Source: a virus. Taken from it: 64,000 bases of DNA. A model generated the notes under the pieces. The model was given only the letters and a program-made list of their open reading frames with translations, was not told where the DNA came from and did no database searches. Below, in pieces: positions 6,412-45,147 of the stretch (positions within the stretch are counted from its first letter, which is position 1; each line of letters starts with the position of its first letter). The stretch covers positions 16,696 to 80,695 of IMG/VR virus record IMGVR_UViG_3300010883_000015. One strand, 5' to 3'. A program made the position numbers and the translations under genes.

Positions 6412-7029
6412 ATGCCTTTAAATATACCTACGGGTAGCAATAATAATATTAGTTTTGGACCCGCCCGAATCCTTATGGACCCTTGGAGTTCTGCTGTTGG
6501 CTCAACACCGACAACTGACGTTGGTTTTATTGGAGAGGATGGTCTGACCATAGAACTTTCTTCTGAAAAGAAAGATATTACACAGGGAAATCCTCAGCTT
6601 ATCCAATACAGTTTCGTTACTGCACAGTCTGCAACAATTAATTTTACATCTATTGAGTGGAATTTTGAAAACTTTAGACTTGCTCTTGGTGCTGGTGCAA
6701 CATCTATTGGTAATGTTGCCAAGCCTCCTTCTGGTGGAGCAGCAACCACTGTTGCTACATTTAACTTTGGTGGAAATCCTTTGAACACTTATGTTGCTCT
6801 TCAAGTTCAGCATAGAATGGCTCAAAGTGCAGGAACACTATATGCTTATATTTGGAAAGCCCAATCAGAATCAGGTTTCTCTCTTCCGTTTGGAACAGAT
6901 GAGCACACTTTTGAATTCAGTTTCAAGGCACTTGCTGCTACGAAAAACTGGAACGGTGTAACTTTACCTTTTGATCAGTGTTTGATGAAACTAGAAAGAG
7001 AATATAGTAGGACTCAAATTCTTACTTAG
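6412..7029 (+). CDS. major tail tube protein
   Basis: ISFGPARI..DVGFIGEDGLTIE pattern; strong AGGAG SD; precedes chaperones and tape measure. Confidence 0.8.
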   Translation: MPLNIPTGSNNNISFGPARILMDPWSSAVGSTPTTDVGFIGEDGLTIELSSEKKDITQGNPQLIQYSFVTAQSATINFTSIEWNFENFRLALGAGATSIGNVAKPPSGGAATTVATFNFGGNPLNTYVALQVQHRMAQSAGTLYAYIWKAQSESGFSLPFGTDEHTFEFSFKALAATKNWNGVTLPFDQCLMKLEREYSRTQILT

Positions 7030-10900: not shown

Positions 10901-13900
10901 CCCTAGAAAAAGCAAAAGCAGTAAGAACACAAGAAACACTTGCTATTGAATATAAATATAGAATTAAAGAACTTCAAAAAGTTTATGAAAAAGAATTAGC
11001 ACTTCTTAAAAATAATTTAGAGAAAAAGAGGGCGCTTGAAGCACGTTATGCAAACTCTGTAAGGATGGTTCAGGATACTTATGAACAGAAATACTTGGCT
11101 GGTCATGACAAGATGCGAGAGCGGATTCTACAAGATATTGAAGAGAGTTCAAAAAGTGAAATAGGGCTTTTAAAGTCAAGTCATAAGGAAGAAATCGACG
11201 AAATAAAAGATAAATTTAAAGATGAAGAAAACCTGATAAAACAACAATTAGGCATTAGAGATGATAACTCAGCATTGTCTGCTGATATCATAAATAAACA
11301 TTTAGATAATGAATATGACATAACAATAGAGTCTTTTGATAAAAAAGCCAAGGCTCAGTACAGTGCAAATAGTGAATATGTAAAGAATAGTATAGGTGAT
11401 AATGCCTCACAAGAGAAAAGACTAGAATTATATGAATCAGATTTAGCTAAAATTACAGAAGAAGCAAACACAAAGAGGGAGGCCCAGAAAGACAAATCAC
11501 TCAATAGATTGGCTACTTTAACTACTAACCATCAATCGCTGCTGGTCTTAGCCGAGAAGAAGAACAGCGCAGAAGTTTTAAAGGCTACTGGCGAGTTGCA
11601 AGATGAATTATTTAAGAATGATATCGAGAGCATGGAGTCAAGGCTAGGTGTGTCTCTTCCTGTTTTAAATTTAATAGTTGAAGAAGAAGCATATAAAAAA
11701 TATCTTAAAAAATTAGAAGATAGTGGTGATATCTCTGCGAATAGAAGGGGACAATTAGAGCAACTATATACACAAAAAATATTAAATCTCAGGAAAAGTG
11801 TTCTTGACCAATCTCTAGGTTTTGATTCTAATTATCTGAAATCTCACAAAGAAGATATTGCAACTCTTCTCAATGAAGAAAACGCAATGTTTAATAATTC
11901 GCTAAATCTTACTGAGGATTTATCGAACAATAGATTACTGAAAATGCTTGGCTATTCTAAGGAAGAAATAAAATTACTTGTTTCTAGAACGCAGATAGCA
12001 AAGACCATATCAATAGAAGAATTAAAAATAAAGAAAGAGACTGCGCTAAAGCTTCTTGCATTAGATAAATGGTACAACGGAGAAGCACAAGCAGTAGCTC
12101 GTCAGGCTGAGGTAGATAAAAGAGAAGAAGTTAAAGCTAATATGACTACTCTTTATGAGTCCAGAAGACGTGCAATTGCAGAAGGAGAAAAGGAAGAAAT
12201 AGAGGAACTTTCAAAATATAACGATGAGAAGATTTTAGAAAATAAGAGATATTTTAAAATATTAAGCAATATATTCTCACAAACACTTCTAGCAACCCGG
12301 TCTTCTTTAAATAAAATAGCAAAAATAGTCGGTGGTGCAACTATTGCATTAGGCGCTCTGTTTTCATTACTATCAGGAGAAAAAAATTCATCTTCAGTGA
12401 AGGAATTTAAAAAATATTTAGCTGGAATAACTAGGTCATTTAGTGCTTTCGGAGCAAGACTAGAGAAAACAGGGTCAGAAACAAAAGATTTCTTCAAGGG
12501 ATTAGGTGACGGAGTAAAAGGTGTTAGCAAAAGTGGAGTTACAAATATAACTACTTTGTTTGCTGGAATAATATCATTATTTAAAGAAGGAGGATTAAAA
12601 AAGGGGTTTTCTTCATTATCAAAAGGATTAGGAGACTTGGGGAAATCCACTAAGGAAAAGGGATCAAAAGGAGACCTGCTTAAGGGATTGGTCGGTGGAG
12701 TAAATAAAGCCAGTAAGGCGCTAGGAAATGTAGAATTAACTACAGGTGGTGGGCTTGCAGGAATGGCTAGCAATACAAAAGCAATATCAGGTGCGCTTTC
12801 TGCAATTGGTGGAAAGTTGGGTGCTATCTTGGGTGGAGTTGCTTCTACACTAGGATATGCAGCTATTGGTGTGGTTGTATTAGGCAAGGCATTAGGCAAA
12901 ATATTAGGAGTTGTTGGAAAGGCAATTTCAAAAATAGTAGAGTTGAGCAAGCAAGCCTTTGATTATATAACTGGTGGATTTAATCTAAATGTTTTCACTG
13001 CAATATCAAATATTACTAGTGATATTATATCACAGCAGACCGCTGCTATTGATAAAGCGAAATCAGACTTAGAGTCCTTGGAACAGCAATTATTGGCGAG
13101 GAAAATAACTAAAGAAGAATATGACGAAGCAAGAGCAGGTGGAATCGGATCGGTAGATGAAGTTGATATTCAGGGTGAAACAGAAACTGCGGTAAATGAA
13201 CTTTTTAAACAAGCAGAAATGTTTATGGGTGTGATACTTCAAGTTGCTCCAAGAGTAATGGAGATGTTTGCGGAAAAACTTCCTGCTTTATTTACTATGT
13301 TTAAAAATGCTGCAATAAGTCTTTTAGGCACAATCGAAGCCTACATGCCTAATTTAGTTATAAGTTTTGTTGATTCTATATTCAGAATTGCTCCTTCTAT
13401 TTTATCTGTACTGCAAGAAGTCCTTCCATCTATACTTACATTTGCTACCAATTTAATTGTTAAAGAATTACCTGCTCTTGCAAATATGTTTTACAGCATA
13501 CTCTTAACTTTTGGCGATATTATAATATCTTCTTTGCCGGATATTGTAACTGCAATAATAAAGCTTGTTCCTACTGTGACTTCGATAATACAAAATATGT
13601 TAAAAATATTTGGTGTTGTTGTAAAGGAAGTAATTAAAAATGCTGATGAAATAACTAAAGTGATTACCGATGCGATTGGGCCAATTCTTGCGACACTTGC
13701 AGATCAATTGTTTCCATTACTAGCTAGTCTTCTAAGTGTTTTAGTAAAATGGGCATTATCCTCTGCTACCAATTTGACTAAATTTGCTATCGATCTGATT
13801 GTTGGGTTTATGAACGCCCTGCCTGATATAATCACCAAAGTAATTGATTTACTACCACTAATAATTGAAGAATTAATATTAAGCATTGGGGATATAATAA

Positions 13901-14622
13901 TTGCAATAGTTATGGCAATTCCTCAAATAATACATGCTATTATTATTTTAATACCAACATTGATCGCTAGTATTATAAAATTAATTCCTGATATTATTGG
14001 CGCTCTTGTAAGTAGTATAGGTATTGTCGGTAAGACAATGTTTGATTCATTCACATCAGGTATCTGGGATATGTTTACTGATATTGGCAAACAATTCGGT
14101 GAAGCATTTAAAGACACCTTGTTTAAAAATGATTGGCTTTCTGGGCTTAGGGACACAAACAATTCAGACGATGATGGGTCTTCTGTCGGGGGTGCAATCA
14201 AGGACTGGTTTGGAAGACAAAAAGATAGATTTGAGGGTAATGCCTCCGTATCGCTGAATGAGTATAATGATACTCCATATGCACTAAGGGCTGGACTAGA
14301 TGGTTTTGCTGCAAAATTTGCTGCTGGTGATTATATTGTCGCTGCTCAAAATCCTGCTGGATTATTACAGCAAGCATTAGATAATTTCATTAATACTACA
14401 AGTTCAAGAGGCTCATTTTCAGGGATGGAGTCAATGGGCAATTCAGGTGGCGCAATGCCCCCAATCGATATAGCTGTTATAGCCGAAGGAAGGCTGTTAG
14501 ATGCCGTTCAGATTACAGCCCTTGATCGAGGTCACGCCCCAAGAATGGAGCGTAAATTACGCAGAGCTAGCGGGGTCAATGTAGGCTTCGATAGAGGCCG
14601 ATTCAATAACTTTGGGAGATAG
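7990..14622 (+). CDS. tail tape measure protein
   Basis: 2210 aa; TP901-type core (ARKLGATTAYTATEAAEGMQQLARAG, GLEGSMVGT); coiled coils; C-terminal amphipathic repeats. Confidence 0.95.
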   Translation: MAERTWKEQVIVQIMGKDAGYNKLVSDATRRTDRFGKSLEILSTRVTNQFTKGLANMATAVSAFSKDMVVAGANFEQAITTLSAIKPSTSSSALAGLSDEARKLGATTAYTATEAAEGMQQLARAGFEANQVLAMTGPALYFAGANAITMDMSTKLLASSLKQFNLVASDSNNVLDVFTVATQNSLFDVESLAVAMRYGGSVGASLGRSLEETVAVMSSFRDLGLEGSMVGTRFRQAMLSLINPTAGAKKIIKDLGLTLEDVNPSIVGATEAIRNLGKAGATSPDALAPIVSKRAAGSVSKLAKDLAEALSIDELEMYFSKLGKDLSLQTVEDIANAEKQIGKSLHQIDLMQMKFQRSAGITARTYETMISTVEGQYKILTSAIQELQITTFKAFNTDVFRGTKKEIEEIGKTFSGTIPEINSFSSILEDLKKVVDDVTTVISFQGIETTLFFTEMTDKIKELVDTFGTTESITIHFIEMSKAIVSASLNVALFLNNFRFLIDLAQTFVAIKLGFMFKNIAEYMLRSAGAMTVTAGAMVNLTGVQGALNVASKGDIAIKNIQRTLMIQMLELMIVQTQAFVALTAGQSRATVATKTNTAALTTQIMAMKASVGLLKKQIISAGAASATIPVATVSMGLLGRATLKAAGFFRALAGALSGPIGLLFIFAPLLMDIFSGWSDIADEVEATTSKVNSLRLSQEAYNKSLATSAGGDKVDQQDGINALKQQLRDREEYTSVIRNELNLVKDLTDKKRQELLLEGKLFKVQYGKENILLSANAAQALRNTYLEKEHGILAQQEKIAESMTANADALNKKVKDGASGFTSLILHQKELNKESGWFGNSWKLSLTDLNDFNNILKETSASMGSVLVAGEKHSNLMSAIASKGLNVYSASDYSEIVKLSTEVYETLESQAKATSNQANVMGNALTDAIDRVTNAGQKRIESNKRIGKSNNDLNKAIESRLKLEEKLRKALEKAKAVRTQETLAIEYKYRIKELQKVYEKELALLKNNLEKKRALEARYANSVRMVQDTYEQKYLAGHDKMRERILQDIEESSKSEIGLLKSSHKEEIDEIKDKFKDEENLIKQQLGIRDDNSALSADIINKHLDNEYDITIESFDKKAKAQYSANSEYVKNSIGDNASQEKRLELYESDLAKITEEANTKREAQKDKSLNRLATLTTNHQSLLVLAEKKNSAEVLKATGELQDELFKNDIESMESRLGVSLPVLNLIVEEEAYKKYLKKLEDSGDISANRRGQLEQLYTQKILNLRKSVLDQSLGFDSNYLKSHKEDIATLLNEENAMFNNSLNLTEDLSNNRLLKMLGYSKEEIKLLVSRTQIAKTISIEELKIKKETALKLLALDKWYNGEAQAVARQAEVDKREEVKANMTTLYESRRRAIAEGEKEEIEELSKYNDEKILENKRYFKILSNIFSQTLLATRSSLNKIAKIVGGATIALGALFSLLSGEKNSSSVKEFKKYLAGITRSFSAFGARLEKTGSETKDFFKGLGDGVKGVSKSGVTNITTLFAGIISLFKEGGLKKGFSSLSKGLGDLGKSTKEKGSKGDLLKGLVGGVNKASKALGNVELTTGGGLAGMASNTKAISGALSAIGGKLGAILGGVASTLGYAAIGVVVLGKALGKILGVVGKAISKIVELSKQAFDYITGGFNLNVFTAISNITSDIISQQTAAIDKAKSDLESLEQQLLARKITKEEYDEARAGGIGSVDEVDIQGETETAVNELFKQAEMFMGVILQVAPRVMEMFAEKLPALFTMFKNAAISLLGTIEAYMPNLVISFVDSIFRIAPSILSVLQEVLPSILTFATNLIVKELPALANMFYSILLTFGDIIISSLPDIVTAIIKLVPTVTSIIQNMLKIFGVVVKEVIKNADEITKVITDAIGPILATLADQLFPLLASLLSVLVKWALSSATNLTKFAIDLIVGFMNALPDIITKVIDLLPLIIEELILSIGDIIIAIVMAIPQIIHAIIILIPTLIASIIKLIPDIIGALVSSIGIVGKTMFDSFTSGIWDMFTDIGKQFGEAFKDTLFKNDWLSGLRDTNNSDDDGSSVGGAIKDWFGRQKDRFEGNASVSLNEYNDTPYALRAGLDGFAAKFAAGDYIVAAQNPAGLLQQALDNFINTTSSRGSFSGMESMGNSGGAMPPIDIAVIAEGRLLDAVQITALDRGHAPRMERKLRRASGVNVGFDRGRFNNFGR

Positions 14623-27283: not shown

Positions 27284-28267
27284 ATGGAAGACTCTGACTT
27301 TATTTTAAAAATTGGTGACTGCATTGAAGAATTGAAATTATTAAAAGAGAATTCTATTGATTCTATTGTTACTGATCCTCCTTATGCCGTATCCATAGAC
27401 AAAAATGATTGGGACGATTTTAAATCTTTACGCCATTTTCAAAAGTGGTGTGAGAAATGGGCAATAGAATGCTTTAGGGTTCTAAAGCCCGGTGGTTATA
27501 TTGTTGCATTTAGCTCGGGAAGAACGTATCACAGGTTAGCTTCGGGCATAGAAGACGCTGGGTTTCAAGTTAAAGATACAATTAATTGGGTGTATTTTAG
27601 CGGGATGCCAAAGGGGTTACGAATAGATAATTTAGGTACTCAATTAAAGCCAAGTTGTGAGCCTGCGGTATTGGCCCAAAAGCCTATATCAGAAAAAACC
27701 TATGCTGATCAATTAAAGAAAACAGGTACAGGGTTTATGAATATAGATGAATGTAGATTCCATCATAAAGACCGTTGTTGGCTAGGCCCTAAAAATGCTG
27801 ATTTTGTTAAAGCTTGGGATAAGCCGATAATGAGTAACTTTACAGGAGACGGAGCTAAGTTATTCGTGGCTGATAGTAAAACAAATTATCAAATAAGAGA
27901 TATTTCTAAATATAAACCTACTGGTGGTAGATTTCCTGCGAATATTTATCATTGTAAAAAGCCAAACAAAAAAGAAAAAGATGCAGGAATAAGAGCATCG
28001 AGGGATAATAACCAAAATGGAAGAAGAAACTTCCACCCAACAGTAAAGCCCTTAAAATTGATGAAATGGCTTGTTAGGCTAGTAACGCCCCGAAACAACA
28101 ATGCTGTTGTCTTAGACCCATTTCTAGGCTCAGGAACAACGGGTATGGCTTGTTTATTAGAAGGATACCGATGCATAGGGATTGAGCGTAATCCTGAGTA
28201 CAAACATATAATAGAATCTAGGATAAAAATAGCTAGAAAAAGTATTTCTGATAAAAATCTTGACTGA
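27284..28267 (+). CDS. DNA methyltransferase, N4-C/N6-A beta class
   Basis: TDPPY, HPTVKP, LDPFLGSGTT. Confidence 0.9.
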   Translation: MEDSDFILKIGDCIEELKLLKENSIDSIVTDPPYAVSIDKNDWDDFKSLRHFQKWCEKWAIECFRVLKPGGYIVAFSSGRTYHRLASGIEDAGFQVKDTINWVYFSGMPKGLRIDNLGTQLKPSCEPAVLAQKPISEKTYADQLKKTGTGFMNIDECRFHHKDRCWLGPKNADFVKAWDKPIMSNFTGDGAKLFVADSKTNYQIRDISKYKPTGGRFPANIYHCKKPNKKEKDAGIRASRDNNQNGRRNFHPTVKPLKLMKWLVRLVTPRNNNAVVLDPFLGSGTTGMACLLEGYRCIGIERNPEYKHIIESRIKIARKSISDKNLD

Positions 28268-34460: not shown

Positions 34461-34700
34461 ATGACTAGAAAATATGTATTACTTAGAGATATGTCGTTTA
34501 ACGATACGTCAAAGAATGACCATTCATTGCGTATTCTTAAAAAGGGTTCTGTATATCCTCTTGTATATTTTAATGAATATGATCGGTACTCAAAATCAAT
34601 GTTTTTCCAAAGTAAAAAAAAGAAAGAAAATATTGTAATATTGTTTGCTGAGGGAATACAGAGGAAATTTATATTAAATATAGATGTTAGGCTTGTGTAG
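34461..34700 (+). CDS. hypothetical protein
   Basis: AAGGA SD, 79 aa. Confidence 0.6.
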   Translation: MTRKYVLLRDMSFNDTSKNDHSLRILKKGSVYPLVYFNEYDRYSKSMFFQSKKKKENIVILFAEGIQRKFILNIDVRLV

Positions 34701-34738
34701 CTATTGATAATAGTATTTAAATATATTACATTATCTTT

Positions 34739-35428
34739 ATGTTCACTATAAAAGAAATTTTCGCGACACTTCAAGGTGAAGGATCAAGATCAGGAACTCC
34801 TGCGATCTTTGTAAGGTTTGCTGGTTGTAACCTATGGTCGGGACAAGATCATCTTCGAGAGAAAGGAAAAGGTCACTGTGCTTTATGGTGTGATACTGAT
34901 TTTTTTCGTGGAGATAAATATGAAGGTTCTGAATTATTAAACCGCCTCAATAGATTAACCTCTAAGTGGCAAGATAAGATGGTTGTATTTACAGGGGGAG
35001 AGCCTTGCTTACAATTAAAGAAGCCCGAAGCCGTAGGATTAATTGAAAGATTGCTAAATACAGGATGGGTGGTTGCAATAGAAACAAATGGAACGATATC
35101 TGCTGAAGAGTGTCAAGTGCTAAATATATTAAATGATCACCCGAATGGTCATATTACGGTTAGTCCGAAACCTCTTATGGATAAAAGTAAACGTCACAGT
35201 ATTGAGCATATTAAATTAAGATTTGGTACAGATTTAAAAATAATCATCCCAACAGTGTTACCTTTAAATGAATTTCAAGAGTTAAATTTTGAACATTTCT
35301 TCTTTCAACCAATGGATCTACAGGACGGGACTTCTGGATTAAGTTCAGTAGAAGAAACCATTGAATTCTGCATAACTTATGGATGGAGGCTATCTTGCCA
35401 AACACACAAATTTCTAAACCTACAATAG
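34739..35428 (+). CDS. queE: 7-carboxy-7-deazaguanine synthase (radical SAM)
   Basis: EIFATLQGEG, FVRFAGCNLW..C..WCDTDF, TGGEP, ETNG, SPK, Q.HK. Confidence 0.95.
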   Translation: MFTIKEIFATLQGEGSRSGTPAIFVRFAGCNLWSGQDHLREKGKGHCALWCDTDFFRGDKYEGSELLNRLNRLTSKWQDKMVVFTGGEPCLQLKKPEAVGLIERLLNTGWVVAIETNGTISAEECQVLNILNDHPNGHITVSPKPLMDKSKRHSIEHIKLRFGTDLKIIIPTVLPLNEFQELNFEHFFFQPMDLQDGTSGLSSVEETIEFCITYGWRLSCQTHKFLNLQ

Positions 35429-35979
35429 ATGAAGTAGAAAAAGCATTTAAAACTATATTGAAATATGTAGGCGAAGATCCAGAAAGAGAAGGCTTAAAAG
35501 AAACGCCTAAACGAGTAGCTAGATCATTAAAAGAATGGTTTTCAGGATATGACATAGATCCTAAATCTGTATTATCAACAACGTTTGAAGAAGTTGAAAA
35601 TTACAACGAGATTGTAGTTTTAAGAAATATTAGGCTAGAAAGTCATTGTGAGCATCACATGTGTCCTATTATTGGAACGGCAACGGTAGCTTACTTGCCT
35701 AGAAATAAAGTTGTAGGAATTTCAAAATTAGCTAGAGTAGTAGATGCATTCGCGAAGCGTTATCAAATTCAAGAAGTTATGACAAAGCAAATAGCAGACA
35801 CCATACAAGAAGTGTTAAATCCTAAAGGTGTTGCAGTTATAATTAAAGCACAGCATTTCTGTATTGGAACAAGGGGAATTCATAAGCATGAAAGTGATAT
35901 GATTACCTCCTGTATGCTTGGTGTATTTATGGAAGATAGCACAGCCAGACTAGAACTTATGCATTTAATAAAAGATTAA
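35383..35979 (+). CDS. folE: GTP cyclohydrolase I
   Basis: REGLKETPKRV, SHCEHH, GISKLAR, QIQE, H.C...RG. Confidence 0.97.
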   Translation: MEAILPNTQISKPTIDEVEKAFKTILKYVGEDPEREGLKETPKRVARSLKEWFSGYDIDPKSVLSTTFEEVENYNEIVVLRNIRLESHCEHHMCPIIGTATVAYLPRNKVVGISKLARVVDAFAKRYQIQEVMTKQIADTIQEVLNPKGVAVIIKAQHFCIGTRGIHKHESDMITSCMLGVFMEDSTARLELMHLIKD

Positions 35980-35988
35980 GGATACAGT

Positions 35989-36789
35989 ATGCTTTCAGTA
36001 TTATCAGCAAGTGGTGGAATGGATAGCACCTCTCTTTTGATGAGACTCTTAGGAGAGGGTCATGAAGTCCATGCTATTTCATTTTATTATGGTCAAACCC
36101 ATTCTTTAGAATTGATTAGGCTTAAAGATAATATCACTTATCTTAGTGAAAATGGATACAAAGTAGTTCATAAAGTTATTAATATAAAATCTATCATGTC
36201 CTCCTTTCATAGCGCTCTGACTGGCTTAATTGATATGCCAGAAGGGCATTATGAAGAAGACAACATGAAAGATACTGTTGTTCCGAATAGGAATGCCATT
36301 TTTAGTTCTATCATATATGGTTATGCATTATCAGAAGCAAATAAACGAGGATGTAAAGCACAGGTTGCTCTTGGTGTTCATAGCGGGGATCATGCAATAT
36401 ATCCTGATTGCAGACCTGAATTCTATGACTATTTATTTATGGCTTTTGATTTTGGAAATTGGAATTCTGAAAGCGTTAAATTGTATCTTCCTTATTTAAA
36501 CGGAGATAAAGAAAGTATTCTAGTAGATGCTATCCATTATTGTAAGAAGTTAAGACTTGATTTTGATACCGTATTTGCGAACACAAACACAGGTTATGAT
36601 CCAGATGAAAAAGGAAGATCTAGCGGGAAAACTGGGGCAGATATAGAGCGCATATTAGCCTTTCACGCTATTGGAAGAACGGATCCGATAGAATATGTGG
36701 ACGGATGGGAAAGTGCCCTAAAGCACGCGATATCAACGCAAGAAAGACATGATACAGATAAAGAACAGCATTCAAATTCAGAGTCTTAA
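35989..36789 (+). CDS. queC: 7-cyano-7-deazaguanine synthase
   Basis: SGGMDST, YGQ.H, VPNRN, YPDCRPEF. Confidence 0.95.
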   Translation: MLSVLSASGGMDSTSLLMRLLGEGHEVHAISFYYGQTHSLELIRLKDNITYLSENGYKVVHKVINIKSIMSSFHSALTGLIDMPEGHYEEDNMKDTVVPNRNAIFSSIIYGYALSEANKRGCKAQVALGVHSGDHAIYPDCRPEFYDYLFMAFDFGNWNSESVKLYLPYLNGDKESILVDAIHYCKKLRLDFDTVFANTNTGYDPDEKGRSSGKTGADIERILAFHAIGRTDPIEYVDGWESALKHAISTQERHDTDKEQHSNSES

Positions 36790-36794
36790 TATCC

Positions 36795-37133
36795 ATGTCT
36801 TTATTCAAGAATAAACCATGGGGTTATGAGTTATTATTTGCTCATAGCGAATATTATGTTGGTAAGATTCTTTTCATAAAAAAAGGACATAGGCTGTCAC
36901 GTCAATACCATGAACAAAAAGATGAAACTATATTTGTTCTTAATGGAAAGCTTAATTTGGTTTTAAATAAATCAGAAGATCTTATTATTTTAGAACAAGG
37001 AGACTCTTACAGAATAAATCCACTTATAATTCACAGGATGGAGGCCAAAGAAGGAGACGTTAAATTAGTGGAAGTATCTACTCCTGAACTCAATGATATA
37101 GTCAGATTAGAGGATGATTATGGAAGAGTTTGA
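36795..37133 (+). CDS. cupin, mannose-6-phosphate-isomerase-like
   Basis: KPWG.E, LSRQYHEQKDET, HRM, EVSTP..DIVRLEDDYGR. Confidence 0.85.
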   Translation: MSLFKNKPWGYELLFAHSEYYVGKILFIKKGHRLSRQYHEQKDETIFVLNGKLNLVLNKSEDLIILEQGDSYRINPLIIHRMEAKEGDVKLVEVSTPELNDIVRLEDDYGRV

Positions 37134-37791
37134 TGATTACATATTTCTAATACCAGCGAGAAAGGGATCGAAAGGGGTTCCATTTAAAAATAGGAAACTT
37201 TTTGACTACACAGCTAAAATAATACCTGATTCAATTAAGCATAAAGTCTACGTCTCAACTGATGATGAGTTTTTTATTGAAAAGTGTAAAGAATTTGGAT
37301 TTAATTATATAGAAAGAGACCCCTTGTTTGCACAAGATGAAACTACAACAAAGGACATGGTTAATAATTTCATTGATAATAATAAAATAGTAAATAAAAC
37401 CATTATTTTATTATATTTAACGTATCCAGAAAGAAAATGGATTGATGTTTTAGGTGCTAAAAAGTTCTATGAGTTAAAAAAATGTCAATCTTTGCTATGT
37501 AAGAAAAAAACTATTGTATCTCCTTATCTAATCCTTTATGATTTAGGAGATGATTTTGGAGAGCAGGTAATTCCACACAACCTTTGTAGGAGACAAGAAT
37601 ACAGAGAATGTTTTGAAATTAGCCACTTCATAAGTATATTTAGTGTCCAGAATTTAAAAGATTTAAACGTGAATTTATATAATTCAAAAACTAAATTTAT
37701 GATTATTAAAAATGCAATAGATATAGATACAACTAATGACTTAAGGGTATTTTATGACAAAAGTAAAAATAATAGCAGAGATCGGGATTAA
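37120..37791 (+). CDS. neuA: CMP-nonulosonate synthetase (acylneuraminate cytidylyltransferase family)
   Basis: IPARKGSKGVPFKN, VSTDD, RRQ, DIDT..D. Confidence 0.85.
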   Translation: MEEFDDYIFLIPARKGSKGVPFKNRKLFDYTAKIIPDSIKHKVYVSTDDEFFIEKCKEFGFNYIERDPLFAQDETTTKDMVNNFIDNNKIVNKTIILLYLTYPERKWIDVLGAKKFYELKKCQSLLCKKKTIVSPYLILYDLGDDFGEQVIPHNLCRRQEYRECFEISHFISIFSVQNLKDLNVNLYNSKTKFMIIKNAIDIDTTNDLRVFYDKSKNNSRDRD

Positions 37792-38578
37792 CCATAATGG
37801 TGATATTAATATTGCCAAAGAATTGATTGATGCTTCAATACTTGCTGGTTGTGATTTTGCTAAATTTCAAAAAAGAACACCAGATATTTGTGTTCCTGAA
37901 CATCAGAAATCTAAATTAAGGGAGACTCCTTGGGGTGAAATTCCTTATATAGAATATAAGAAAAAGATTGAATTTGAAAAAGAAGAGTATGAAGAATTGT
38001 TCGATTATGTAGAAGATCTACCTATTGAAATATTTGCCTCTGTATGGGATAAGCCTTCTGTTGATTTTATGTCTAGATATACTCCATTTTCAAAAATAGG
38101 ATCAGCCTTAATAACAGATTTGGAATTATGTAAATATGCTAGAAAGAAATCAGAATTTCTTATTATCTCAACAGGCATGAGTACTGAATATGAAATTGAA
38201 GATTGCATAAATGCCTGTAATCCTGACGTTGTAATGCACACGAATTCTGCTTATCCTTCGCCAGTTAATGAATTAAATCTAAATTACATTCATTGGCTAA
38301 AGGAAAAATGGCCTGAGCACGCCATTGGATATAGTGGTCATGAATATGGCTTGGTTACTACTTTTGCAGCAGTTGCAATGGGTTGCACTTGGGTAGAACG
38401 ACATATTACGCTAGAAAGAACTATGTGGGGAAGTGATCAAATGGCATCGATAGAGCCACAAGGATTTACTAAATTAGTAAAAGGGATAAGAGACATAGAA
38501 AAAGCTTGTATTTTACCCCCACAAGCGCGGGTCTTATTTCCTAGTGAAACCTCTAAAAGAGCAAGTTTAAGGAAATAA
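37754..38578 (+). CDS. neuB: nonulosonate (N-acetylneuraminate/KDN-9-P) synthase, without C-terminal SAF domain
   Basis: IIAEIGINHNGD, KFQKR, STGMS, YP, GYSGHE, ERHITL, GSDQ. Confidence 0.92.
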   Translation: MTKVKIIAEIGINHNGDINIAKELIDASILAGCDFAKFQKRTPDICVPEHQKSKLRETPWGEIPYIEYKKKIEFEKEEYEELFDYVEDLPIEIFASVWDKPSVDFMSRYTPFSKIGSALITDLELCKYARKKSEFLIISTGMSTEYEIEDCINACNPDVVMHTNSAYPSPVNELNLNYIHWLKEKWPEHAIGYSGHEYGLVTTFAAVAMGCTWVERHITLERTMWGSDQMASIEPQGFTKLVKGIRDIEKACILPPQARVLFPSETSKRASLRK

Positions 38579-38579
38579 G

Positions 38580-39593
38580 ATGAAAGCATTACATTTATAT
38601 GCCTCTAAGGCACAGTTTAATTCTGGTGATTTCTTTCTAGGCCCTGCAACTAAATGGAAATTTGAAAAAATAATTGATTCAAAAGTAGATTGGGAAACGC
38701 TAGACATTAGACAATCTTTCTCAAAAGGAACTATCAATTATATAAATTCGTTTGATTATTTAATTGTTGGTGGGGGTGGATTGATTCTTCCTGATAGCAA
38801 CCCAAATGAAGTATCTTGCTGGCAATGGGCTATATCCAAAGAATTATTAGAACTCATAACGGCAAAAATATATGTAATGGCTATTGGTTATAATTTGTTT
38901 TTTGAACAAGACATGTCCATGCCTCATCGAGAAATAGAAGATTCTATACCAAGAAGAAAAACAATATTTAAATCTAATATAGAAACCTTAATAAGGAAAA
39001 GTCATTATTTTAGTATGAGGCATAAAGGGGACATAATTCAATTAAGGAAAATTGTTGATACTGAGTATCATTCAAAAATAGAATTTATGTTTTGCCCTGT
39101 TATTGATTATGTTAAAAATAAGTATCTTCTTTCATTCAATTCAGGAGATTATTATACTTTTGAAATTAAAGATGATCGTCCCAACAGAAGATATAAAGGA
39201 ACATCTAAAGAGGAATTTTATAGTAAATTAAAACAATTTATAGAATATTTAATATCTGAAAACAAGCCTGTTGCTATCATGTCTCATGATGGTAGTCGTT
39301 CCTTTTATGATTATTTAAAATCTAAATCTATAAATATTCCACTTTTAGACAATACAACCGCAGATGAGATTAAAATAATTACAAATTATTCAAAAGTTAA
39401 AAAATTATATTGTATGGCAGGTCATAGTCAAATGACAGGTCACGCTCTCGGAATAGATATGTTTAGTTTAATAAGCCACAACAAATTAAAATACTTTCTT
39501 GAAGACATAAAGAGAACAATACCTAAAGATGGTGAATATGTGTCTGAATTAACTTTAAGTAATTTAATTAAAGGATATAATGATGAATCTTGA
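38580..39593 (+). CDS. polysaccharide pyruvyl-transferase-like protein
   Basis: NSGD, IVGGGGLI, AIGY, SMR, HS motif order of this family. Confidence 0.7.
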   Translation: MKALHLYASKAQFNSGDFFLGPATKWKFEKIIDSKVDWETLDIRQSFSKGTINYINSFDYLIVGGGGLILPDSNPNEVSCWQWAISKELLELITAKIYVMAIGYNLFFEQDMSMPHREIEDSIPRRKTIFKSNIETLIRKSHYFSMRHKGDIIQLRKIVDTEYHSKIEFMFCPVIDYVKNKYLLSFNSGDYYTFEIKDDRPNRRYKGTSKEEFYSKLKQFIEYLISENKPVAIMSHDGSRSFYDYLKSKSINIPLLDNTTADEIKIITNYSKVKKLYCMAGHSQMTGHALGIDMFSLISHNKLKYFLEDIKRTIPKDGEYVSELTLSNLIKGYNDES

Positions 39594-40254
39594 ACAAGTT
39601 AAAAAAATATTTTCGAGAAAAAAGAACAGTAGAAACCCTATGATGAAATTATATAATGTAGACGAATTTTATCAGGATATAAATAAATTATTTCATTCGT
39701 ATGAAAGTCTCGATATTTTAGATATTGGAGGGGGGAGAGGTCGCACATTTGATACTGTCAATTCCAATTATCATGTGTTTGATTTAAATCATCATAATAG
39801 TAAAAATTTTATTAAAGGCGATATTACTGATCCTAAATTAAGCGTAAACAAGCAATTTGATATAATTTTTACTAAAGATACTTTTGAGCATATCTTAAAC
39901 CCTTGGGAGGCCACAGATAACATCAAAAAACTTCTTAAAGAAAAAGGGGTCTTTATCTGTATAGCACCCTTTTCTTGGCGATTTCATCCTTCTCCATATG
40001 ATGCTTATAGATATTCTCATCAAGGATTAAAATATATTTTTGAACATAAAAATAATATTAAAGAAATAGAGTCAGGATATATTTATGCCATTGATAAAAC
40101 AAAAGGAACTTGGCCTAATAAATATGACTCTTGGATTGCTCCAGATGGAGTATATAAAGATTGCGTTTCTGCTTTTTATATAGGGATTAAAGATTCAAAT
40201 TATATTTTCAATAAAAATATTATTGTAGCCGATACTTCTCTAAATCATGATTAA
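39580..40254 (+). CDS. class I SAM-dependent methyltransferase
   Basis: ILDIGGG, GDITD, FEHILNPW, H..PYD.YR. Confidence 0.85.
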   Translation: MMNLEQVKKIFSRKKNSRNPMMKLYNVDEFYQDINKLFHSYESLDILDIGGGRGRTFDTVNSNYHVFDLNHHNSKNFIKGDITDPKLSVNKQFDIIFTKDTFEHILNPWEATDNIKKLLKEKGVFICIAPFSWRFHPSPYDAYRYSHQGLKYIFEHKNNIKEIESGYIYAIDKTKGTWPNKYDSWIAPDGVYKDCVSAFYIGIKDSNYIFNKNIIVADTSLNHD

Positions 40255-40927
40255 AAAAACAATGAATTGTGTTATTTGTAATGGTTCAAGTTTTTTATAT
40301 CGTGAACATCTTTTATTAAAAGAAGAAATATATAAATGTTCTTCTTGCTTTTATCATTTTGTAAATTGTTCAAATTTTAATGAAAAAGATATATTTGATC
40401 AGCAGAATAATAATTCTGGAAGTTTTGGTGGGAATTTTTCCAGAAATTCTAAGTATTTATCTTTATTGAAAAAACAAACAAATATTAAAAGCATATTAGA
40501 AATTGGAACACCTGATAATTACGGATTTTTAGAAATGGTTTTTAAAGAATTTGGAAAAACCATTGAAATAAATTCTCATGACTTAATAAAGAATAATTTT
40601 CCTTCTTATATTAATTTTTATTCCAATAAAGATGAATTGCTAAGAAAAGAAATTGATCTCTTGTTTTGTATTCATACTTTAGAACATATCCCAACTAATC
40701 ATCTTTTAGAATTCATTTCATTTTGTAAATCTGTATCAAAAAAATACATATTTGAAGTACCTTGCTGTGAAACCCTTACAAGAGTATTAAAAAGTTCCAC
40801 TCAGCCTCATTATAGTTTCTTTTCTGAATTATCATTAAAGGTTCTTTTTGAAGAGGATTTGATTCTAAATAAAACAAATGAAGTTATTAGATTTACTAAT
40901 TTGGAAGAATTAAATATATTAATATAA
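40247..40927 (+). CDS. SAM-dependent methyltransferase-like protein with N-terminal Zn knuckle
   Basis: CVIC..CSSC; ILEIG; HTLEHIP; FEVP; H.SFFS..SL. Confidence 0.75.
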   Translation: MIKKTMNCVICNGSSFLYREHLLLKEEIYKCSSCFYHFVNCSNFNEKDIFDQQNNNSGSFGGNFSRNSKYLSLLKKQTNIKSILEIGTPDNYGFLEMVFKEFGKTIEINSHDLIKNNFPSYINFYSNKDELLRKEIDLLFCIHTLEHIPTNHLLEFISFCKSVSKKYIFEVPCCETLTRVLKSSTQPHYSFFSELSLKVLFEEDLILNKTNEVIRFTNLEELNILI

Positions 40928-41055
40928 TTATATTAAAATGAAAGAATAATGAAAAAGCTAAATATAGGCCCAGTCTCTTCTACTTCTTATTTTAAAAATC
41001 TTGCAGACTAGGAAGCAAGAGAGCATTATAGAAGTATGTATATAGAGGTTATTAA

Positions 41056-41385
41056 ATGATTATTTATGTAGACATAGATGAAACGATCTGCAATTCTCCT
41101 GAAAATAGAGACTATGCAAAAGCAGAACCAATTTACGCACATATTAAGGAGATAAACAGGCTATATCAACAAGGTAATACAATTATATATTGGACAGCAA
41201 GAGGGACTGGCTCTGGTATAGATTGGAGATATATTACCGAAAATCAATTTAAAGAATGGGGCGTTCAATACCATCAATTAAAGTTTGGTAAGCCCATTTA
41301 TGATCTGTTCATAGACGACAAAAATATAAATAGCGAGGTATTTTTTAATGGAGCTTTCGAGTTTAAAAAACAAGCACAAATATGA
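41056..41385 (+). CDS. capless HAD-superfamily phosphatase
   Basis: VDIDETIC, WTARG, GKP, IDDK. Confidence 0.85.
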   Translation: MIIYVDIDETICNSPENRDYAKAEPIYAHIKEINRLYQQGNTIIYWTARGTGSGIDWRYITENQFKEWGVQYHQLKFGKPIYDLFIDDKNINSEVFFNGAFEFKKQAQI

Positions 41386-42046
41386 AGACGTATGGGTTAT
41401 CGGTTCAGGATCTTCTCTTGATTTTATAGATAAATCATTTTTTGAAAACAAAATAACCGTTGGAGTTAATAGGTCTTGTTGTTATTTTGAATGCGATTAT
41501 GTGGTTGCAAAAGATCTTAGAGGATTAGAAGAAATAGAAGAAAACACTTTAAATAAAAATATTCAAAAAATATATTCTTTATTTAATTGTGGGAATACTA
41601 CATCAACAAGAAATGACGAAAATAAAGATAAAGATATTGTTTATTTCCATCACCCACAAAATGGGAACCCTAGGACAGAAATCATTGGAACGACCAATAG
41701 TAATGGAGAAGACTTAATTATTGTTTCTTTATCAACAATAACTAGTGCAATTCATATTGCGGCCTATATGGGCGCTAAGAATATAATTATATGTGGTCAT
41801 GATTGTGGGAAACTAAATAATAATATTTCAATAAAAGGATATAATTCTATTATCCCGCCCGTACAGGGAGCTAATGAATATGTTGAATGGTTAAACCGCA
41901 TAGAAAATCATACTATAAAAGTATGTAAAAAACTTAAAGAAGTATACAATTGCAATATACATTCATTAAATCCATTCATAAATTTTAATTTAGAAGGATT
42001 TAAATTTGAGTCAAATCCAAAAATAAACGAAAGAAGGTTTAGTTAA
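41348..42046 (+). CDS. DUF115/Maf-like (sialyltransferase-like) protein
   Basis: VIGSGSSL, GVN, D, AIHIAAYMGAKNIIICGHD. Confidence 0.75.
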   Translation: MELSSLKNKHKYEDVWVIGSGSSLDFIDKSFFENKITVGVNRSCCYFECDYVVAKDLRGLEEIEENTLNKNIQKIYSLFNCGNTTSTRNDENKDKDIVYFHHPQNGNPRTEIIGTTNSNGEDLIIVSLSTITSAIHIAAYMGAKNIIICGHDCGKLNNNISIKGYNSIIPPVQGANEYVEWLNRIENHTIKVCKKLKEVYNCNIHSLNPFINFNLEGFKFESNPKINERRFS

Positions 42047-42082
42047 ATATTGCCTTAAATATATAAATATAAGGAGTGAAAA

Positions 42083-42256
42083 ATGAAAAAGAGCAAAAAC
42101 AAAATAAAAACAACAACACAAAATAGATCTGAAATATTAGAAGGCAAGCCTGAAATATTAGAAAATAAAAAAATTATAAAAAATAAAGAAGAACGAGACT
42201 GGAGATATCCTTGGGAAAAGGCGTGGAAGACTGATCTTAGAATAAAGTGGAATTAG
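42083..42256 (+). CDS. small basic hypothetical protein (57 aa), not in ORF track
   Basis: AAGGAG SD; MKKSKNKIK...DWRYPWEKAWKTDLRIKWN. Confidence 0.55.
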   Translation: MKKSKNKIKTTTQNRSEILEGKPEILENKKIIKNKEERDWRYPWEKAWKTDLRIKWN

Positions 42257-42406
42257 ATAAAAATAAAGATCAAGCAAATTAAGAACTTATAATAAATTAC
42301 TAAAAATTATCAAATCCGTTTAGTTGTAAAAAAAATGTAAATTAATCAATTAAATTGTTGATTTAACATACTGATTAATTTAAGTAATAATATAAGGAGA
42401 ATTTTA

Positions 42407-42865
42407 ATGGGATATCAAAGTACAAAAATATTTTCAGGATATAGCACAGCCTTCAGGCAGTGGAAAGCAACTCATTCTCATTGTAAATTTATGCATGGAT
42501 ATGCATTAAGTTTTAAAGTATGGTTTGAGGGAGACATAGACGAAAGAAATTGGGTAGCAGATTTCGGGTCTTTTAAAAAGAATGGAATTAAAGACAAATT
42601 AAGTAATATATTTGATCACACTACCATCATCGCTAACGATGACCCTCTTTTGGCAGACTTTGAAAACCTGCATAACAAAGGTGCAATTCAGATTATTATA
42701 ATGGAAGATGTGGGGTGTGAAGTATTTGCTAAATGTGTATCAGATATGATAAATACAATAATAAGTAAAGAAACCAATGGAAGGGTGCAAGTCAAAAGAG
42801 TTGAATGTTTTGAAGGCTCTACAAGCAATAGTGCAATTTATGAGGCTAATAATGAGATCAAATAA
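42407..42865 (+). CDS. queD: 6-carboxy-5,6,7,8-tetrahydropterin synthase
   Basis: HSHCKFMHGY, WVADFG, FDH, GCE.FA. Confidence 0.9.
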   Translation: MGYQSTKIFSGYSTAFRQWKATHSHCKFMHGYALSFKVWFEGDIDERNWVADFGSFKKNGIKDKLSNIFDHTTIIANDDPLLADFENLHNKGAIQIIIMEDVGCEVFAKCVSDMINTIISKETNGRVQVKRVECFEGSTSNSAIYEANNEIK

Positions 42866-43139
42866 TACTCAAATTGCGACTATAAGATTGAATTTATTAG
42901 ATCTAAATAAAAGCGCGAATGAGCCTCAATTTAAATCTTTAATAAGCGATGGATGGACTGTTATTTCTTCATTGGCGGTACAAGAAGAAGAACGACCTAC
43001 TTTAATTTTACTGTTGGCTCCCCCTAAAGAAGAAATCAGGGTTAAAGTTGAAAAGGAAATAAAGATAAAACTAATAATCATGATTATTATTCAAATATTA
43101 ATAGCAATTGTTTTAATAAAGGGAGGCCTGTATGCCTAA
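42852..43139 (+). CDS. hypothetical protein with C-terminal TM anchor
   Basis: LIIMIIIQILIAIVLI; GAGG SD before ATG 42852. Confidence 0.6.
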   Translation: MRSNNTQIATIRLNLLDLNKSANEPQFKSLISDGWTVISSLAVQEEERPTLILLLAPPKEEIRVKVEKEIKIKLIIMIIIQILIAIVLIKGGLYA

Positions 43140-43767
43140 GGTAATAGAAGAAATAGAAGTAGAAGAAGGTCAAAAAGTAGAAACAGAAAAAGTAGGGGAA
43201 TGGGTGCACCTAGATCAATTGGTGGAATGGGATCAGAATCCAAGATTTAACGACCAAGCGATAGATCAAATTGCTGATAGTATAAAAAAGTTTGGTTTTT
43301 CTTCTCCTATAATTGCTAGAAAAGCAGATAACAAAATAATTGCAGGACATACAAGATTTAAGGCTGCTCAGTCCTTAGGTATGCAATTTGTTCCTGTCCG
43401 ATTTATGGACTTGTCAGAAACAGAAGCAAAGGCTCTTGCCCTTGCCGATAACAGGCTCGGAGAGATAGCATCTTGGGACGACGGGCTGTTAGGTGACGTG
43501 CTATCTGAATTAAAGAAAGAAGGCGTAGATATGGACATATTGGGCTTTTCTCAACAAGAAGTCGATCAATTGTTAGGAAATTGGACTGATCCTTTTTGGG
43601 ATGAAGATGAACTTAATAGCAGTGAATTAAATGATGACGAAATAGAAGATAATGGTCAATCAATAATCTATATCACCGTAGCTATAAATAGAGCCAAAGA
43701 TACTAGTGATCTCATTACAGAATTGCTAAATAGCAACAACATAGAACATACAATTAAATTAAAATAA
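43132..43767 (+). CDS. ParB/Srx N-terminal-domain protein (DNA-modification-associated type)
   Basis: NPR, SIKKFGF..PII, IIAGHTRFKAA, LADNR; no HTH apparent. Confidence 0.88.
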   Translation: MPKVIEEIEVEEGQKVETEKVGEWVHLDQLVEWDQNPRFNDQAIDQIADSIKKFGFSSPIIARKADNKIIAGHTRFKAAQSLGMQFVPVRFMDLSETEAKALALADNRLGEIASWDDGLLGDVLSELKKEGVDMDILGFSQQEVDQLLGNWTDPFWDEDELNSSELNDDEIEDNGQSIIYITVAINRAKDTSDLITELLNSNNIEHTIKLK

Positions 43768-43780
43768 AAGGATTTACAAC

Positions 43781-44257
43781 ATGACTGATGATGAAAAATA
43801 TGAGTCTCATGGGAATTCTTCGCAATTAAAATCCCTTGGGAATGCCAAAACTAAATACCCAACAACGCCAGACGAGGCAGAGTTAGAGAAAATACCGTGG
43901 AAAGGAGAAGGCTTTAGTTACGTTACTTGGGAATGCCCTGAATATACTTGTGCTTGTCCCAAAACAGGCCAACCTGACTTTGCAACAGTCTATATACAAT
44001 ACATACCAGAAGCATATATTGTAGAAAGTAAATCATTGAAAATATATTTATTCTCTTTCCGTAATTATGGTCATTTCCATGAAGTTGGGATTGAAAGAAT
44101 TGCTAAAGATATATTTGATTTTATACAACCTAAATTCTTAAGAGTAGTTGGAGACTTCAATAAGAGAGGAGGGATATCAATTGTCCCTATTTCAGAATTT
44201 GGAGATCTTTCTTTATCTAGCTCTATACCTATTCCTAAAATAACATATGGCTCTTAA
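43781..44257 (+). CDS. queF: preQ0 reductase (unimodular type I)
   Basis: CPKTGQPDFA, QueF motif ESKSLKIYL, HE, RGGI. Confidence 0.93.
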   Translation: MTDDEKYESHGNSSQLKSLGNAKTKYPTTPDEAELEKIPWKGEGFSYVTWECPEYTCACPKTGQPDFATVYIQYIPEAYIVESKSLKIYLFSFRNYGHFHEVGIERIAKDIFDFIQPKFLRVVGDFNKRGGISIVPISEFGDLSLSSSIPIPKITYGS

Positions 44258-45147
44258 TGCCTATTAAATTCCATAATTTAGTTTCTTTTGCATTATTTGG
44301 AGATCGAATTAATGAAGGCTTGCATCCAGAATGGAATACTATGTTGGATAGCGGGGGATTTACAAACTTTGTAAGAGGTAAAGATATTGTTACCTTGAAA
44401 GATTATTGTATGTATCTTAAAACCGAAAAGGTAAGGTTTTGGGAATATATGGCTCTCGACCGAATTGGGGATAAAAAGATCAGCGGGGAGTATCTTAATA
44501 AAATGATAAGCGTCGGTCTTGCTCCTGTTCCAATTTATCAGAGAGGAGAAGGAAGTGCCAAAGAATTAACTAAGATGATAGAAGCAAATAGATTAATTGC
44601 TATTGGTGGAATCTCTCAAAACCTTTCAGCCAAAGCCGAGCAAGAGTACCTTCGTAACGTAATGAGGGTGGTAAGAAAAGTTCCGACTGCAAAGGTTCAT
44701 CTTCTTGGGGTAGGTGTTAGAGAAGCCAAGCTATATTGCCCTTATAGTTCAGATAGTAGCACTTGGGCTAGTCATTTTAGATTTGGGATTATTCGTCTTT
44801 GGCATCAAGGTAAATTGTTAGACTTCCAAAAACATAAGACTGCTCAACACGCCAAGAGATATGTTAGGCCGAATCCAAATTACACACGATGTTTAGCTAA
44901 ATATAGCCTGACTTGGAATGATCTATATGATAATGCCGATTGGTCTAAGCCTGAAAGTAAATTAAGCATAGCAGCAACTAGGTCTTGGATAAGGCAATCT
45001 AGGTCTTTGTATCGAAAAGATAGCAGATATTTATTAGCAAGTTTACCAATAAATGTTCAAGCGATTAAAGAGGCTTGGAATTATGAAAGAATTTCATGGG
45101 GTTGGCCTAAGTCTAAATTCATAAGTATACCATCTGAAAAGAAATAA
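44257..45147 (+). CDS. dpdA: DNA 7-deazaguanine transglycosylase (TGT-like)
   Basis: MLDSGGFT, LD.IGD, PIYQ.G, IAIGG, VHLLG, SSDSSTW; adjacent to que genes. Confidence 0.85.
   Translation: MPIKFHNLVSFALFGDRINEGLHPEWNTMLDSGGFTNFVRGKDIVTLKDYCMYLKTEKVRFWEYMALDRIGDKKISGEYLNKMISVGLAPVPIYQRGEGSAKELTKMIEANRLIAIGGISQNLSAKAEQEYLRNVMRVVRKVPTAKVHLLGVGVREAKLYCPYSSDSSTWASHFRFGIIRLWHQGKLLDFQKHKTAQHAKRYVRPNPNYTRCLAKYSLTWNDLYDNADWSKPESKLSIAATRSWIRQSRSLYRKDSRYLLASLPINVQAIKEAWNYERISWGWPKSKFISIPSEKK

Follow-up and report, generated by a model that had tools for sequence, protein, structure and literature searches.

In phage deazaguanine systems, the validated methylase of 7-aminomethyl-7-deazaguanine in DNA (dPreQ1; preQ1 as the free base) is DpdM, a DUF3109 metalloprotein with a CxxxCxxCC motif (PMC10516641). 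Bacterial DpdA, the DNA guanine transglycosylase, requires the ParB-like ATPase DpdB (PMC10164549), and a ParB activator is required by some phage T-dioxygenases as well (PMC13229309). On the side of the sugars, a phage enzyme of the glycosyltransferase B (GT-B) fold was reported to add an ulosonic acid resembling 3-deoxy-D-manno-octulosonic acid (Kdo) to 5-hydroxymethylcytosine (5hmC) in DNA (bioRxiv 10.1101/2023.12.21.572611), and a passage in PMC12619734 citing Freeman 2023 states that mycobacteriophage glycosyltransferases (GTs) glycosylate virions. The locus analyzed here touches both fields. It lies in a window of 64,000 nucleotides (nt), the final 64 kb of the 80,695-bp viral record IMGVR_UViG_3300010883_000015, which CheckV rates as 100% complete. 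At 34739-45147 of this window, genes for the synthesis and insertion of preQ1 (the que/dpdA module) enclose a cassette of eight genes for a nonulosonic, sialic-acid-like sugar. The original prediction had offered two readings, namely that the sugar is built onto dPreQ1 in DNA, or that the cassette supplies a nonulosonate activated with cytidine monophosphate (CMP) for an acceptor other than DNA. The latter appears favored by the sequence comparisons, as cassette and que/dpdA genes do not occur together elsewhere. The block is likely composed of two independent, neighboring modules in one early, co-oriented region, of which the mobile cassette would provide a CMP-activated sugar resembling ketodeoxynonulosonic acid (Kdn) for a non-DNA acceptor.

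Genomic association of the cassette and the que/dpdA module

All genes at 34739-45147 lie on the plus strand. Profile searches bore out the gene order and gene calls of the original prediction at unchanged coordinates: QueE, FolE, and QueC are followed by a cupin, a NeuA-like cytidylyltransferase, NeuB, a GT-B protein, two methyltransferases (MT1 and MT2), a small phosphatase of the haloacid dehalogenase (HAD) family, and a Maf-like protein, and then by a small open reading frame (ORF), QueD, a further small ORF, a ParB-like protein, QueF, and DpdA. The cupin was indeed found close behind QueC, with 5 nt between them, and the sugar genes mostly overlap or abut as described, the exceptions being a gap of 128 nt before the HAD gene and one of 150 nt before QueD.

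For the cassette side of the comparison, IMG/VR was scanned with the Maf-like protein and NeuB, and the resulting 78 loci were taken with 10-kb flanks and searched by tblastn with all window proteins. Dozens of marine viral contigs, L002, L003, L005, and L056 among them, repeat the order NeuA-NeuB-GT-B-variable genes-HAD-Maf, and the nearest cassettes, L056 and L002, share 71-76% identity in NeuB, 72-74% in HAD, 52-58% in the GT-B protein, and 48-50% in the Maf-like protein. Within 10 kb, QueE, FolE, QueC, QueD, QueF, ParB, and DpdA were found in 0 of the 78 cassette loci. DpdA was likewise found in 0 of 30 whole records behind cassette loci, six of which are 96-100% complete, with the record of locus L079 as positive control (E-value 9.5e-24). 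The search of the same 30 records for que genes gave weak QueC-family matches only, the best of which (33 bits) lies in a record with a Maf relative alone.

From the other side, a profile of DpdA relatives led to 80 viral loci comprising 1.0 Mb. FolE was present in 74 of them, QueE in 70, ParB in 62, and QueC in 55, and NeuA, NeuB, the GT-B protein, Maf, the cupin, MT1, and MT2 were found in 0 of the 80. By its DpdA, L079 is the only close relative in IMG/VR (58% identity, with 58% for the primase-helicase as well), and an alignment scan with QueF returned its contig alone. The other identities to L079 amount to 47% for QueE, 75% for FolE, 62% for QueC, 70% for QueF, and 51% for ParB. There, the genes follow in the order primase-helicase, QueE, FolE, QueC, 78 bp, small ORF, ParB, QueF, and DpdA, and no cassette is present; the 78 bp correspond to the site that holds the cassette, a 57-residue ORF (orf57), and QueD in the window. 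QueD was not found in the 13 kb of L079 examined.

With cassettes outside any que/dpdA context in all 78 loci and 30 records, no cassette gene in the 80 DpdA loci, and L079 as a cassette-free relative, the comparison gave the very outcome that the original prediction had named as refuting the first of its two readings, a nonulosonate on dPreQ1 DNA, which is hence improbable. Since cassette and que/dpdA genes are passed on independently of each other, a sialic-acid-like sugar on the deazaguanine base was set aside as unlikely. The position of the cassette within the que operon is best accounted for if it was inserted into an early operon that tolerates such gains.

Predicted pathway and transferase of the cassette

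The mobile cassette, which is missing in the related phage, extends over 36795-42046. Its first gene (36795-37133) encodes a small cupin like the C-terminal domain of type II mannose-6-phosphate isomerases, with matches to PF01050 MannoseP_isomer (36.7 bits) and Cupin_2 (35.5 bits) that are both above the cut-offs. Relatives with 33-38% identity were found in 15 cassette loci, and the protein is predicted to supply mannose-6-phosphate. The second gene (37114-37791) encodes a putative CMP-nonulosonate synthetase, a NeuA/PseF-like cytidylyltransferase that is matched by PF02348 CTP_transf_3 with 33 bits (cut-off 22.6) over residues 10-93 only. Compared with TIGR03584 PseF, it reached an E-value of 1e-8 and 34.8 bits, far below the cut-off. 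Its cluster occurs in 53 viral loci and usually adjoins the Maf-like gene or NeuB there.

The third protein (37754-38578; 274 residues; PF03102, 209 bits) belongs to the NeuB family of nonulosonate(-9-phosphate) synthases and consists of the triosephosphate isomerase (TIM) barrel only. Its best solved relatives are PseI 8h2c, SpsE, and NeuB 6ncs/1xuu (E-values from 1e-28 to 1e-22), and the alignment stops at about residue 270 of the 349-residue chains, leaving out the SAF (antifreeze-like) domain of NeuB/PseI. The histidines of its 'SGH' and 'ERH' motifs, which we take to be metal-binding, align with histidines of the solved enzymes. The short form is the rule for phage homologues, as all 35 non-redundant sequences measure 235-290 residues and likewise lack the SAF domain. 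None of the NCBIfam equivalogs was reached (197 bits against a cut-off of 400), and among deposited phages, matches were found in two uncultured records only. The HAD phosphatase further downstream (41056-41385) has just 109 residues, carries an N-terminal DxD motif, and is matched weakly by the capsule-biosynthesis phosphatase family TIGR01689 (E-value 3e-6) and also by phrog_1238 (E-value 3e-27). As its gene adjoins NeuB or Maf in 36 loci, it is presumably a nonulosonate-9-phosphate phosphatase.

The adjacency of NeuB with HAD and of NeuA with NeuB across dozens of loci fits a route via a 9-phosphate intermediate. Such a Kdn-9-phosphate route, with a NeuB-type synthase, a HAD phosphatase, and a CMP-synthetase, is reportedly used by Bacteroides thetaiotaomicron. 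Since the window encodes a cupin resembling phosphomannose isomerase (PMI) but neither an aminotransferase nor a dehydratase, the most economical proposal is a Kdn-like sugar derived from mannose-6-phosphate. The cupin would convert fructose-6-phosphate to mannose-6-phosphate, from which the SAF-less NeuB would form a Kdn-like nonulosonate-9-phosphate with phosphoenolpyruvate (PEP); the small HAD protein would then remove the phosphate, and the cytidylyltransferase would make the CMP-sugar.

Tailoring could be performed by the three proteins encoded between NeuB and HAD. The GT-B protein (38580-39593; 337 residues) is pyruvyltransferase-like, although its match to PF04230 remains below the cut-off (22.6 against 25.3 bits). 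For its structural model, with a predicted local distance difference test score (pLDDT) of 83, VIA-align ranked the yeast pyruvyltransferase Pvg1p at the top (Z 16.9), and uridine diphosphate (UDP)-GlcNAc 2-epimerases tied at Z 15-16. T4 alpha-glucosyltransferase appeared at rank 17 of the Foldseek matches, which is expected of any GT-B protein. The gene comes directly after NeuB in 13 loci, and judging by the model, the protein may tailor the sugar or serve as a second transferase. MT1 (39580-40254) and MT2 (40247-40927) are class I S-adenosylmethionine (SAM) methyltransferases with matches to Methyltransf_23/11/12, and their Atlas neighbors all belong to Methyltransf_23. In the cassettes of other phages, their slot is filled by variable tailoring genes (DegT, WbqC, a CmcI-like methyltransferase, and PhyH). 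Single-protein scans of viral contigs with MT1 and MT2 gave no match, while the locus comparison revealed an MT1 relative (48% identity) between a GT-B relative and NeuB/Maf relatives in the que-less locus L090. It had been suggested that the methyltransferases could act on the preQ1 amine; this was not supported, as both have the class I SAM fold and fail the definition of DpdM, which is of the DUF3109 fold. Together with the que-less MT1 relative, this makes MT1 and MT2 candidates for sugar tailoring.

The last gene (41348-42046) encodes a DUF115 protein of 232 residues, a minimal version of the fold shared by Maf, CstII, and MptE. Its sole Pfam match, MptE-like PF01973, is below the cut-off (26 against 34.6 bits) and covers just 38 residues; phrog_4603, named 'alpha-2,3-sialyltransferase', was matched with an E-value of 7e-6. 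Using VIA-align, the structural model (pLDDT 89.8) was superposed on Maf 5mu5 with Z 13.4 and a root-mean-square deviation (rmsd) of 3.6 over 175 aligned residues, on the MptE pyrophosphokinase (HPPK) 8sd5, the archaeal pterin kinase of M. jannaschii, with Z 13.2, and on CstII 1ro8 with Z 11.8 and an rmsd of 3.4 over 170 aligned residues. The protein corresponds to residues 262-508 of the 632-residue Maf only, and the N- and C-terminal acceptor-binding domains are missing. The three superpositions are of nearly equal quality. When the Maf and GT-B alignments were compared with PDB sequences, only chance matches turned up.

In most of 57 viral loci, the Maf-like gene adjoins NeuA, and with loci free of FolE and QueD, this points to a nonulosonate transferase rather than a pterin kinase. 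Model and gene neighborhood are consistent with a CMP-nonulosonate transferase, which in the last step would place the sugar, tailored by both methyltransferases and the GT-B protein, on a hydroxyl of a protein or glycan, not on DNA. The family is large and uncharacterized, with more than 766 protein clusters (90% identity) on phage-sized metagenomic contigs, most of which have a precomputed PF01973 match. It is absent from 50,697 deposited phage genomes, a set that is expected to include the known preQ1-DNA phages, as judged by tblastn. Contigs from cell genomes were scanned with one 8-residue pattern only, which yielded two loci and says nothing on absence from cells. The compact nonulosonate pathway, which appears self-sufficient and ends in a predicted transferase of minimal Maf/CstII fold, is widespread in uncultured marine phages.

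Two side observations concern the same family. One of the two loci from the cell-genome scan, L170 (NZWA01000089.1), is a 44-kb contig assigned to a Flavobacteriales metagenome-assembled genome (MAG). Its proteins, the NeuA-Maf pair among them, are 85-100% identical to those of the viral contigs L038, L052, and L049, so that the contig seems to be of phage origin and to have entered the MAG by binning; this gives a weak host hint for that cassette lineage. In L018-L022 and L047, two tandem Maf-family genes were found (approximately 8798-11366 in L018), one of which encodes 623 residues, the full length of Maf, and no relative of NeuA, NeuB, or HAD lies within 10 kb of them.

Weighing the acceptors

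Regarding the acceptor, we tentatively favor phage virion proteins over a host envelope glycan, at a probability somewhat short of even, because a gene for a 953-residue GT2-type protein lies in the tail module. This protein (2237-5098) has a weak Pfam GT2 match (25.9 bits), and its Atlas neighbors are all viral GT2 clusters, some with tetratricopeptide repeats (TPR; 0.97). Its gene stands a short way ahead of those for the major tail protein (6412-7029) and the tape measure (7990-14622), and the protein is a candidate for the glycosylation of virions. If virions are the acceptor, many marine phages may wear sialic-acid-like sugars, which bears on adsorption, grazing, and host recognition. The same pathway could instead serve a host envelope glycan, such as the core of lipooligosaccharide or lipopolysaccharide (LOS/LPS) or a capsule precursor, and remodel the surface so that, for example, superinfection is blocked or progeny are kept off debris. 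Lipooligosaccharide is sialylated by enzymes of the CstII type, whose fold is closely matched (Z 11.8), and a role of this kind is also the usual reading where genes such as NeuA and KdsA turn up in marine viruses (PMC5332604). Moreover, the cassette is grouped with early and replication genes and not with the structural module, and the islands of other phages hold many GTs along with nucleotide-sugar enzymes of the sort that serves surface polysaccharides. However, no flippase, polymerase, ligase, or lipid-carrier enzyme is among the annotated genes, and the phage appears lytic, although the integrase, which was not noticed, was not searched for systematically. The best fold match is furthermore of the Maf type (Z 13.4), a cytoplasmic protein glycosyltransferase, and the large GT2 gene lies in the tail module. 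A host envelope acceptor is the main alternative to the virion, at a clearly lower probability. The islands just mentioned hold the cassettes of other phages together with several GTs (GT1, GT2, GT4, and GT29-like), epimerase/dehydratases, DegT aminotransferases, UDP-glucose dehydrogenase, WbqC, and a PglD-like acetyltransferase, often beside genes of replication and nucleotide metabolism. Some cassette-bearing phages, as seen in L013 (11283-12419 and neighbors), have a gene of the GT29-like, eukaryote-type sialyltransferase family beside NeuA, together with three GT2 genes and a PglD-like acetyltransferase, which suggests a multi-sugar glycan capped by nonulosonates.

On DNA, the aminomethyl group of dPreQ1 would have to take up the CMP-activated Kdn-like sugar, or the carboxylate of that sugar, once DpdA has inserted preQ1, and a decorated 7-deazaguanine would result. 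The nesting of the cassette in the que/dpdA operon with tight or overlapping junctions would agree with this, as would the presence of QueF, by which the reactive amine is made, the precedent of the Kdo-like acid on 5hmC added by a phage GT-B enzyme, and T4 alpha-glucosyltransferase among the fold matches of the GT-B protein. The literature searched contains nothing that combines 7-deazaguanine, phage, and nonulosonic acid, nor phage DNA hypermodification with sialic acid; a purine analogue that carries a sugar acid of nine carbons would be a kind of DNA base not described there. However, cassette and que/dpdA are never together elsewhere (0/78, 0/30, and 0/80), the nearest relative L079 has the que cluster without the cassette, and an MT1 relative is part of a que-less cassette. 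Complete cassette genomes lack DpdA, and the thymidylate synthase (ThyS) family occurs in 6 of the 30 records, in none within approximately 15 kb of the cassette. Maf and GT42 enzymes form O-ketosidic bonds to hydroxyls, and preQ1 has only a primary amine. It offers no hydroxyl for a sialyltransferase-type reaction, and an amide-forming ligase is missing from the cassette. In the complete genome of the phage itself, neither the thymidylate synthase family (PF00303) nor a C5-methylase (PF00145) was matched, and TET/JBP (PF12851) gave no match here or in the 30 cassette-bearing records in searches that lacked a positive control; the genome hence showed none of the known routes to a hydroxymethyl-pyrimidine. 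Altogether, we consider this form of DNA decoration very unlikely. Recruitment in a single lineage, by which a methylated or pyruvylated Kdn-like acid would be placed on the dPreQ1 aminomethyl group via the Maf-fold or the GT-B-fold protein, is given a similarly slim chance. In the least convincing proposal, the DUF115 protein is a pterin pyrophosphokinase similar to MptE that cooperates with FolE and QueD, while the other sugar genes only feed a CMP-sugar to host enzymes. MptE-like is its sole Pfam match (26 bits), the HPPK of M. jannaschii, with Z 13.2, is on a par with the top fold match, and with FolE and QueD, two pterin enzymes are encoded nearby. The Pfam match, however, spans 38 residues below the cut-off, homologues stand beside NeuA in most of the 57 viral loci, FolE or QueD matches occur in 0 of the 78 cassette loci, and a homologue occurs in 0 of the 80 DpdA/FolE loci, leaving the proposal extremely improbable. 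Genomic association led to the rejection of this pterin kinase and likewise of a role of MT1 and MT2 in methylating preQ1.

Two independent modules with a non-DNA acceptor nevertheless have several points to contend with. The cassette lies precisely within the que operon, with only 5 nt between it and QueC and with reading frames that overlap; this arrangement is unique among approximately 160 loci and may reflect a newly evolved coupling. Closer DpdA relatives exist, namely P0054 (67% identity, on a 65-kb contig), P0062, and P0064, whose contexts were outside the comparison. In other phages, cassettes are often near DNA polymerase, dUTPase, UvsX, and PhoH. The Kdo-like acid on 5hmC and the Foldseek match of the GT-B protein to T4 alpha-glucosyltransferase count here as well.

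The que/dpdA module and comparison with known systems

The first half of the 7-cyano-7-deazaguanine (preQ0) pathway is encoded by QueE (34739-35428; TIGR04508, 158 bits), FolE (35383-35979; PF01227, 245 bits), and QueC (35989-36789; PF06508, 117 bits), and it is completed downstream of the cassette by QueD (42407-42865), a 6-carboxytetrahydropterin synthase of the PTPS family (PF01242, 50.7 bits). QueF (43781-44257; TIGR03139, 128.9 bits against a cut-off of 86.9) is of type II and reduces preQ0 to preQ1, so that preQ1 and not preQ0 is the base offered to DpdA (44257-45147; phrog_887, E-value 7e-20). This DpdA had no match in Pfam or NCBIfam and is divergent, with at most 39% identity to all IMG/VR loci but one. 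Together with the ParB-like partner, these enzymes would make preQ1 and swap it for guanine in the phage DNA, and plain dPreQ1 is the most likely end product in DNA as far as the gene content indicates.

The ParB-N protein (43132-43767; PF02195, 44.9 bits) contains the GxxRxxA motif as GHTRFKA. In 62 of the 80 viral DpdA loci, dpdA directly follows a gene for a ParB homologue, and a word search for ParB in two papers on phage deazaguanines (PMC10516641 and PMC10484667) found no mention. The protein is a presumed accessory partner of DpdA, and phage DpdA may be ParB-dependent; the near-universal ParB-dpdA pairing is a testable lead on the activation of phage DpdA enzymes.

Two small ORFs complete the module. 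The lysine-rich orf57 (42083-42256) is known from the ORF list and its sequence and has no family match. A small protein with a hydrophobic C-terminus (orf120; 42777-43139) has no family match either, lacks the CxxxCxxCC metal motif, and shares 44% identity with L079 8625-8915; in both phages, it stands between QueC/QueD and ParB. The listed ORF overlaps QueD by 89 nt and probably overstates the length of the protein. The spacer at 42257-42406 (150 nt) is AT-rich and contains a promoter-like TTAACA-17-AATAAT as well as a strong TAAGGAG ribosome-binding site before QueD, and QueD to DpdA may form a transcription unit separate from the cassette. Promoter and terminator scans of the block gave no excess over shuffled controls and are uninformative on its operon structure. 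The GC content of the cassette genes is 0.23-0.34 (six of eight at 0.31 or less), compared with 0.34-0.37 for the que genes. An N6/N4 DNA methylase (27284-28267; PF01555, 148 bits), 6.5 kb upstream of the que cluster, represents a second DNA-modification function of the same early region.

The window sequence is present in marine-metagenome runs, and a megablast search of the region against deposited phages gave no match. A Logan contig from one run spans 36195-37191 with zero differences and crosses the QueC-cupin junction, which is weak independent support because this run is probably the source sample; a second run yielded diverged fragments only. Read joints, including one that skips 34637-43143, had sides of 24 nt or less throughout and were not used as they are unreliable.

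The locus shares with phage 7-deazaguanine DNA modification the clustering of a full preQ0 pathway, QueF, and a DpdA-family transglycosylase, with dPreQ1 as the predicted product. Here, however, the cluster is broken by the 5.3-kb sugar cassette, DpdM (DUF3109) and DpdN are missing, a ParB-like gene precedes QueF-DpdA, and DpdA is divergent. The phage DNA-glycosylation clusters of Pyle et al., which pair a C5-methyltransferase and 5mYOX or ThyS with GT-A/GT-B enzymes (bioRxiv 10.1101/2023.12.21.572611), resemble it in combining base-modifying, sugar-activating, and GT-fold enzymes. Their precedent for an ulosonic acid on DNA uses a hydroxyl handle, whereas the base here carries an amine, and the sugar genes here travel independently of the base-modification genes.

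Bacterial Kdn and sialic-acid pathways likewise have an adjacent NeuB-family synthase, small HAD phosphatase, and cytidylyltransferase, and the PMI-like cupin could provide the mannose-6-phosphate. In the phage cassette, NeuB lacks the SAF domain, the HAD protein has only 109 residues, the substrate is a predicted one, and methyltransferases and the GT-B protein are added. With the Maf flagellin transferases (5mu5) and the GT42 enzymes CstI/CstII, the transferase has in common the core fold and the genomic pairing with a CMP-nonulosonate synthetase, but it is phage-encoded, a third as long as Maf, without flanking acceptor-binding domains, and only 14-17% identical. Mycobacteriophage virion glycosylation, as far as it is covered in the passage of PMC12619734 mentioned above, offers GTs acting on capsid and tail proteins as a parallel to the GT2 gene in the tail module; no nonulosonate is known from it, and the predicted transferase and sugar genes of the present phage lie in the early region. 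Set beside these systems, the cassette represents a variation on sugar-metabolism modules already known from phages, and the que/dpdA module is a further member of the known phage DpdA systems.

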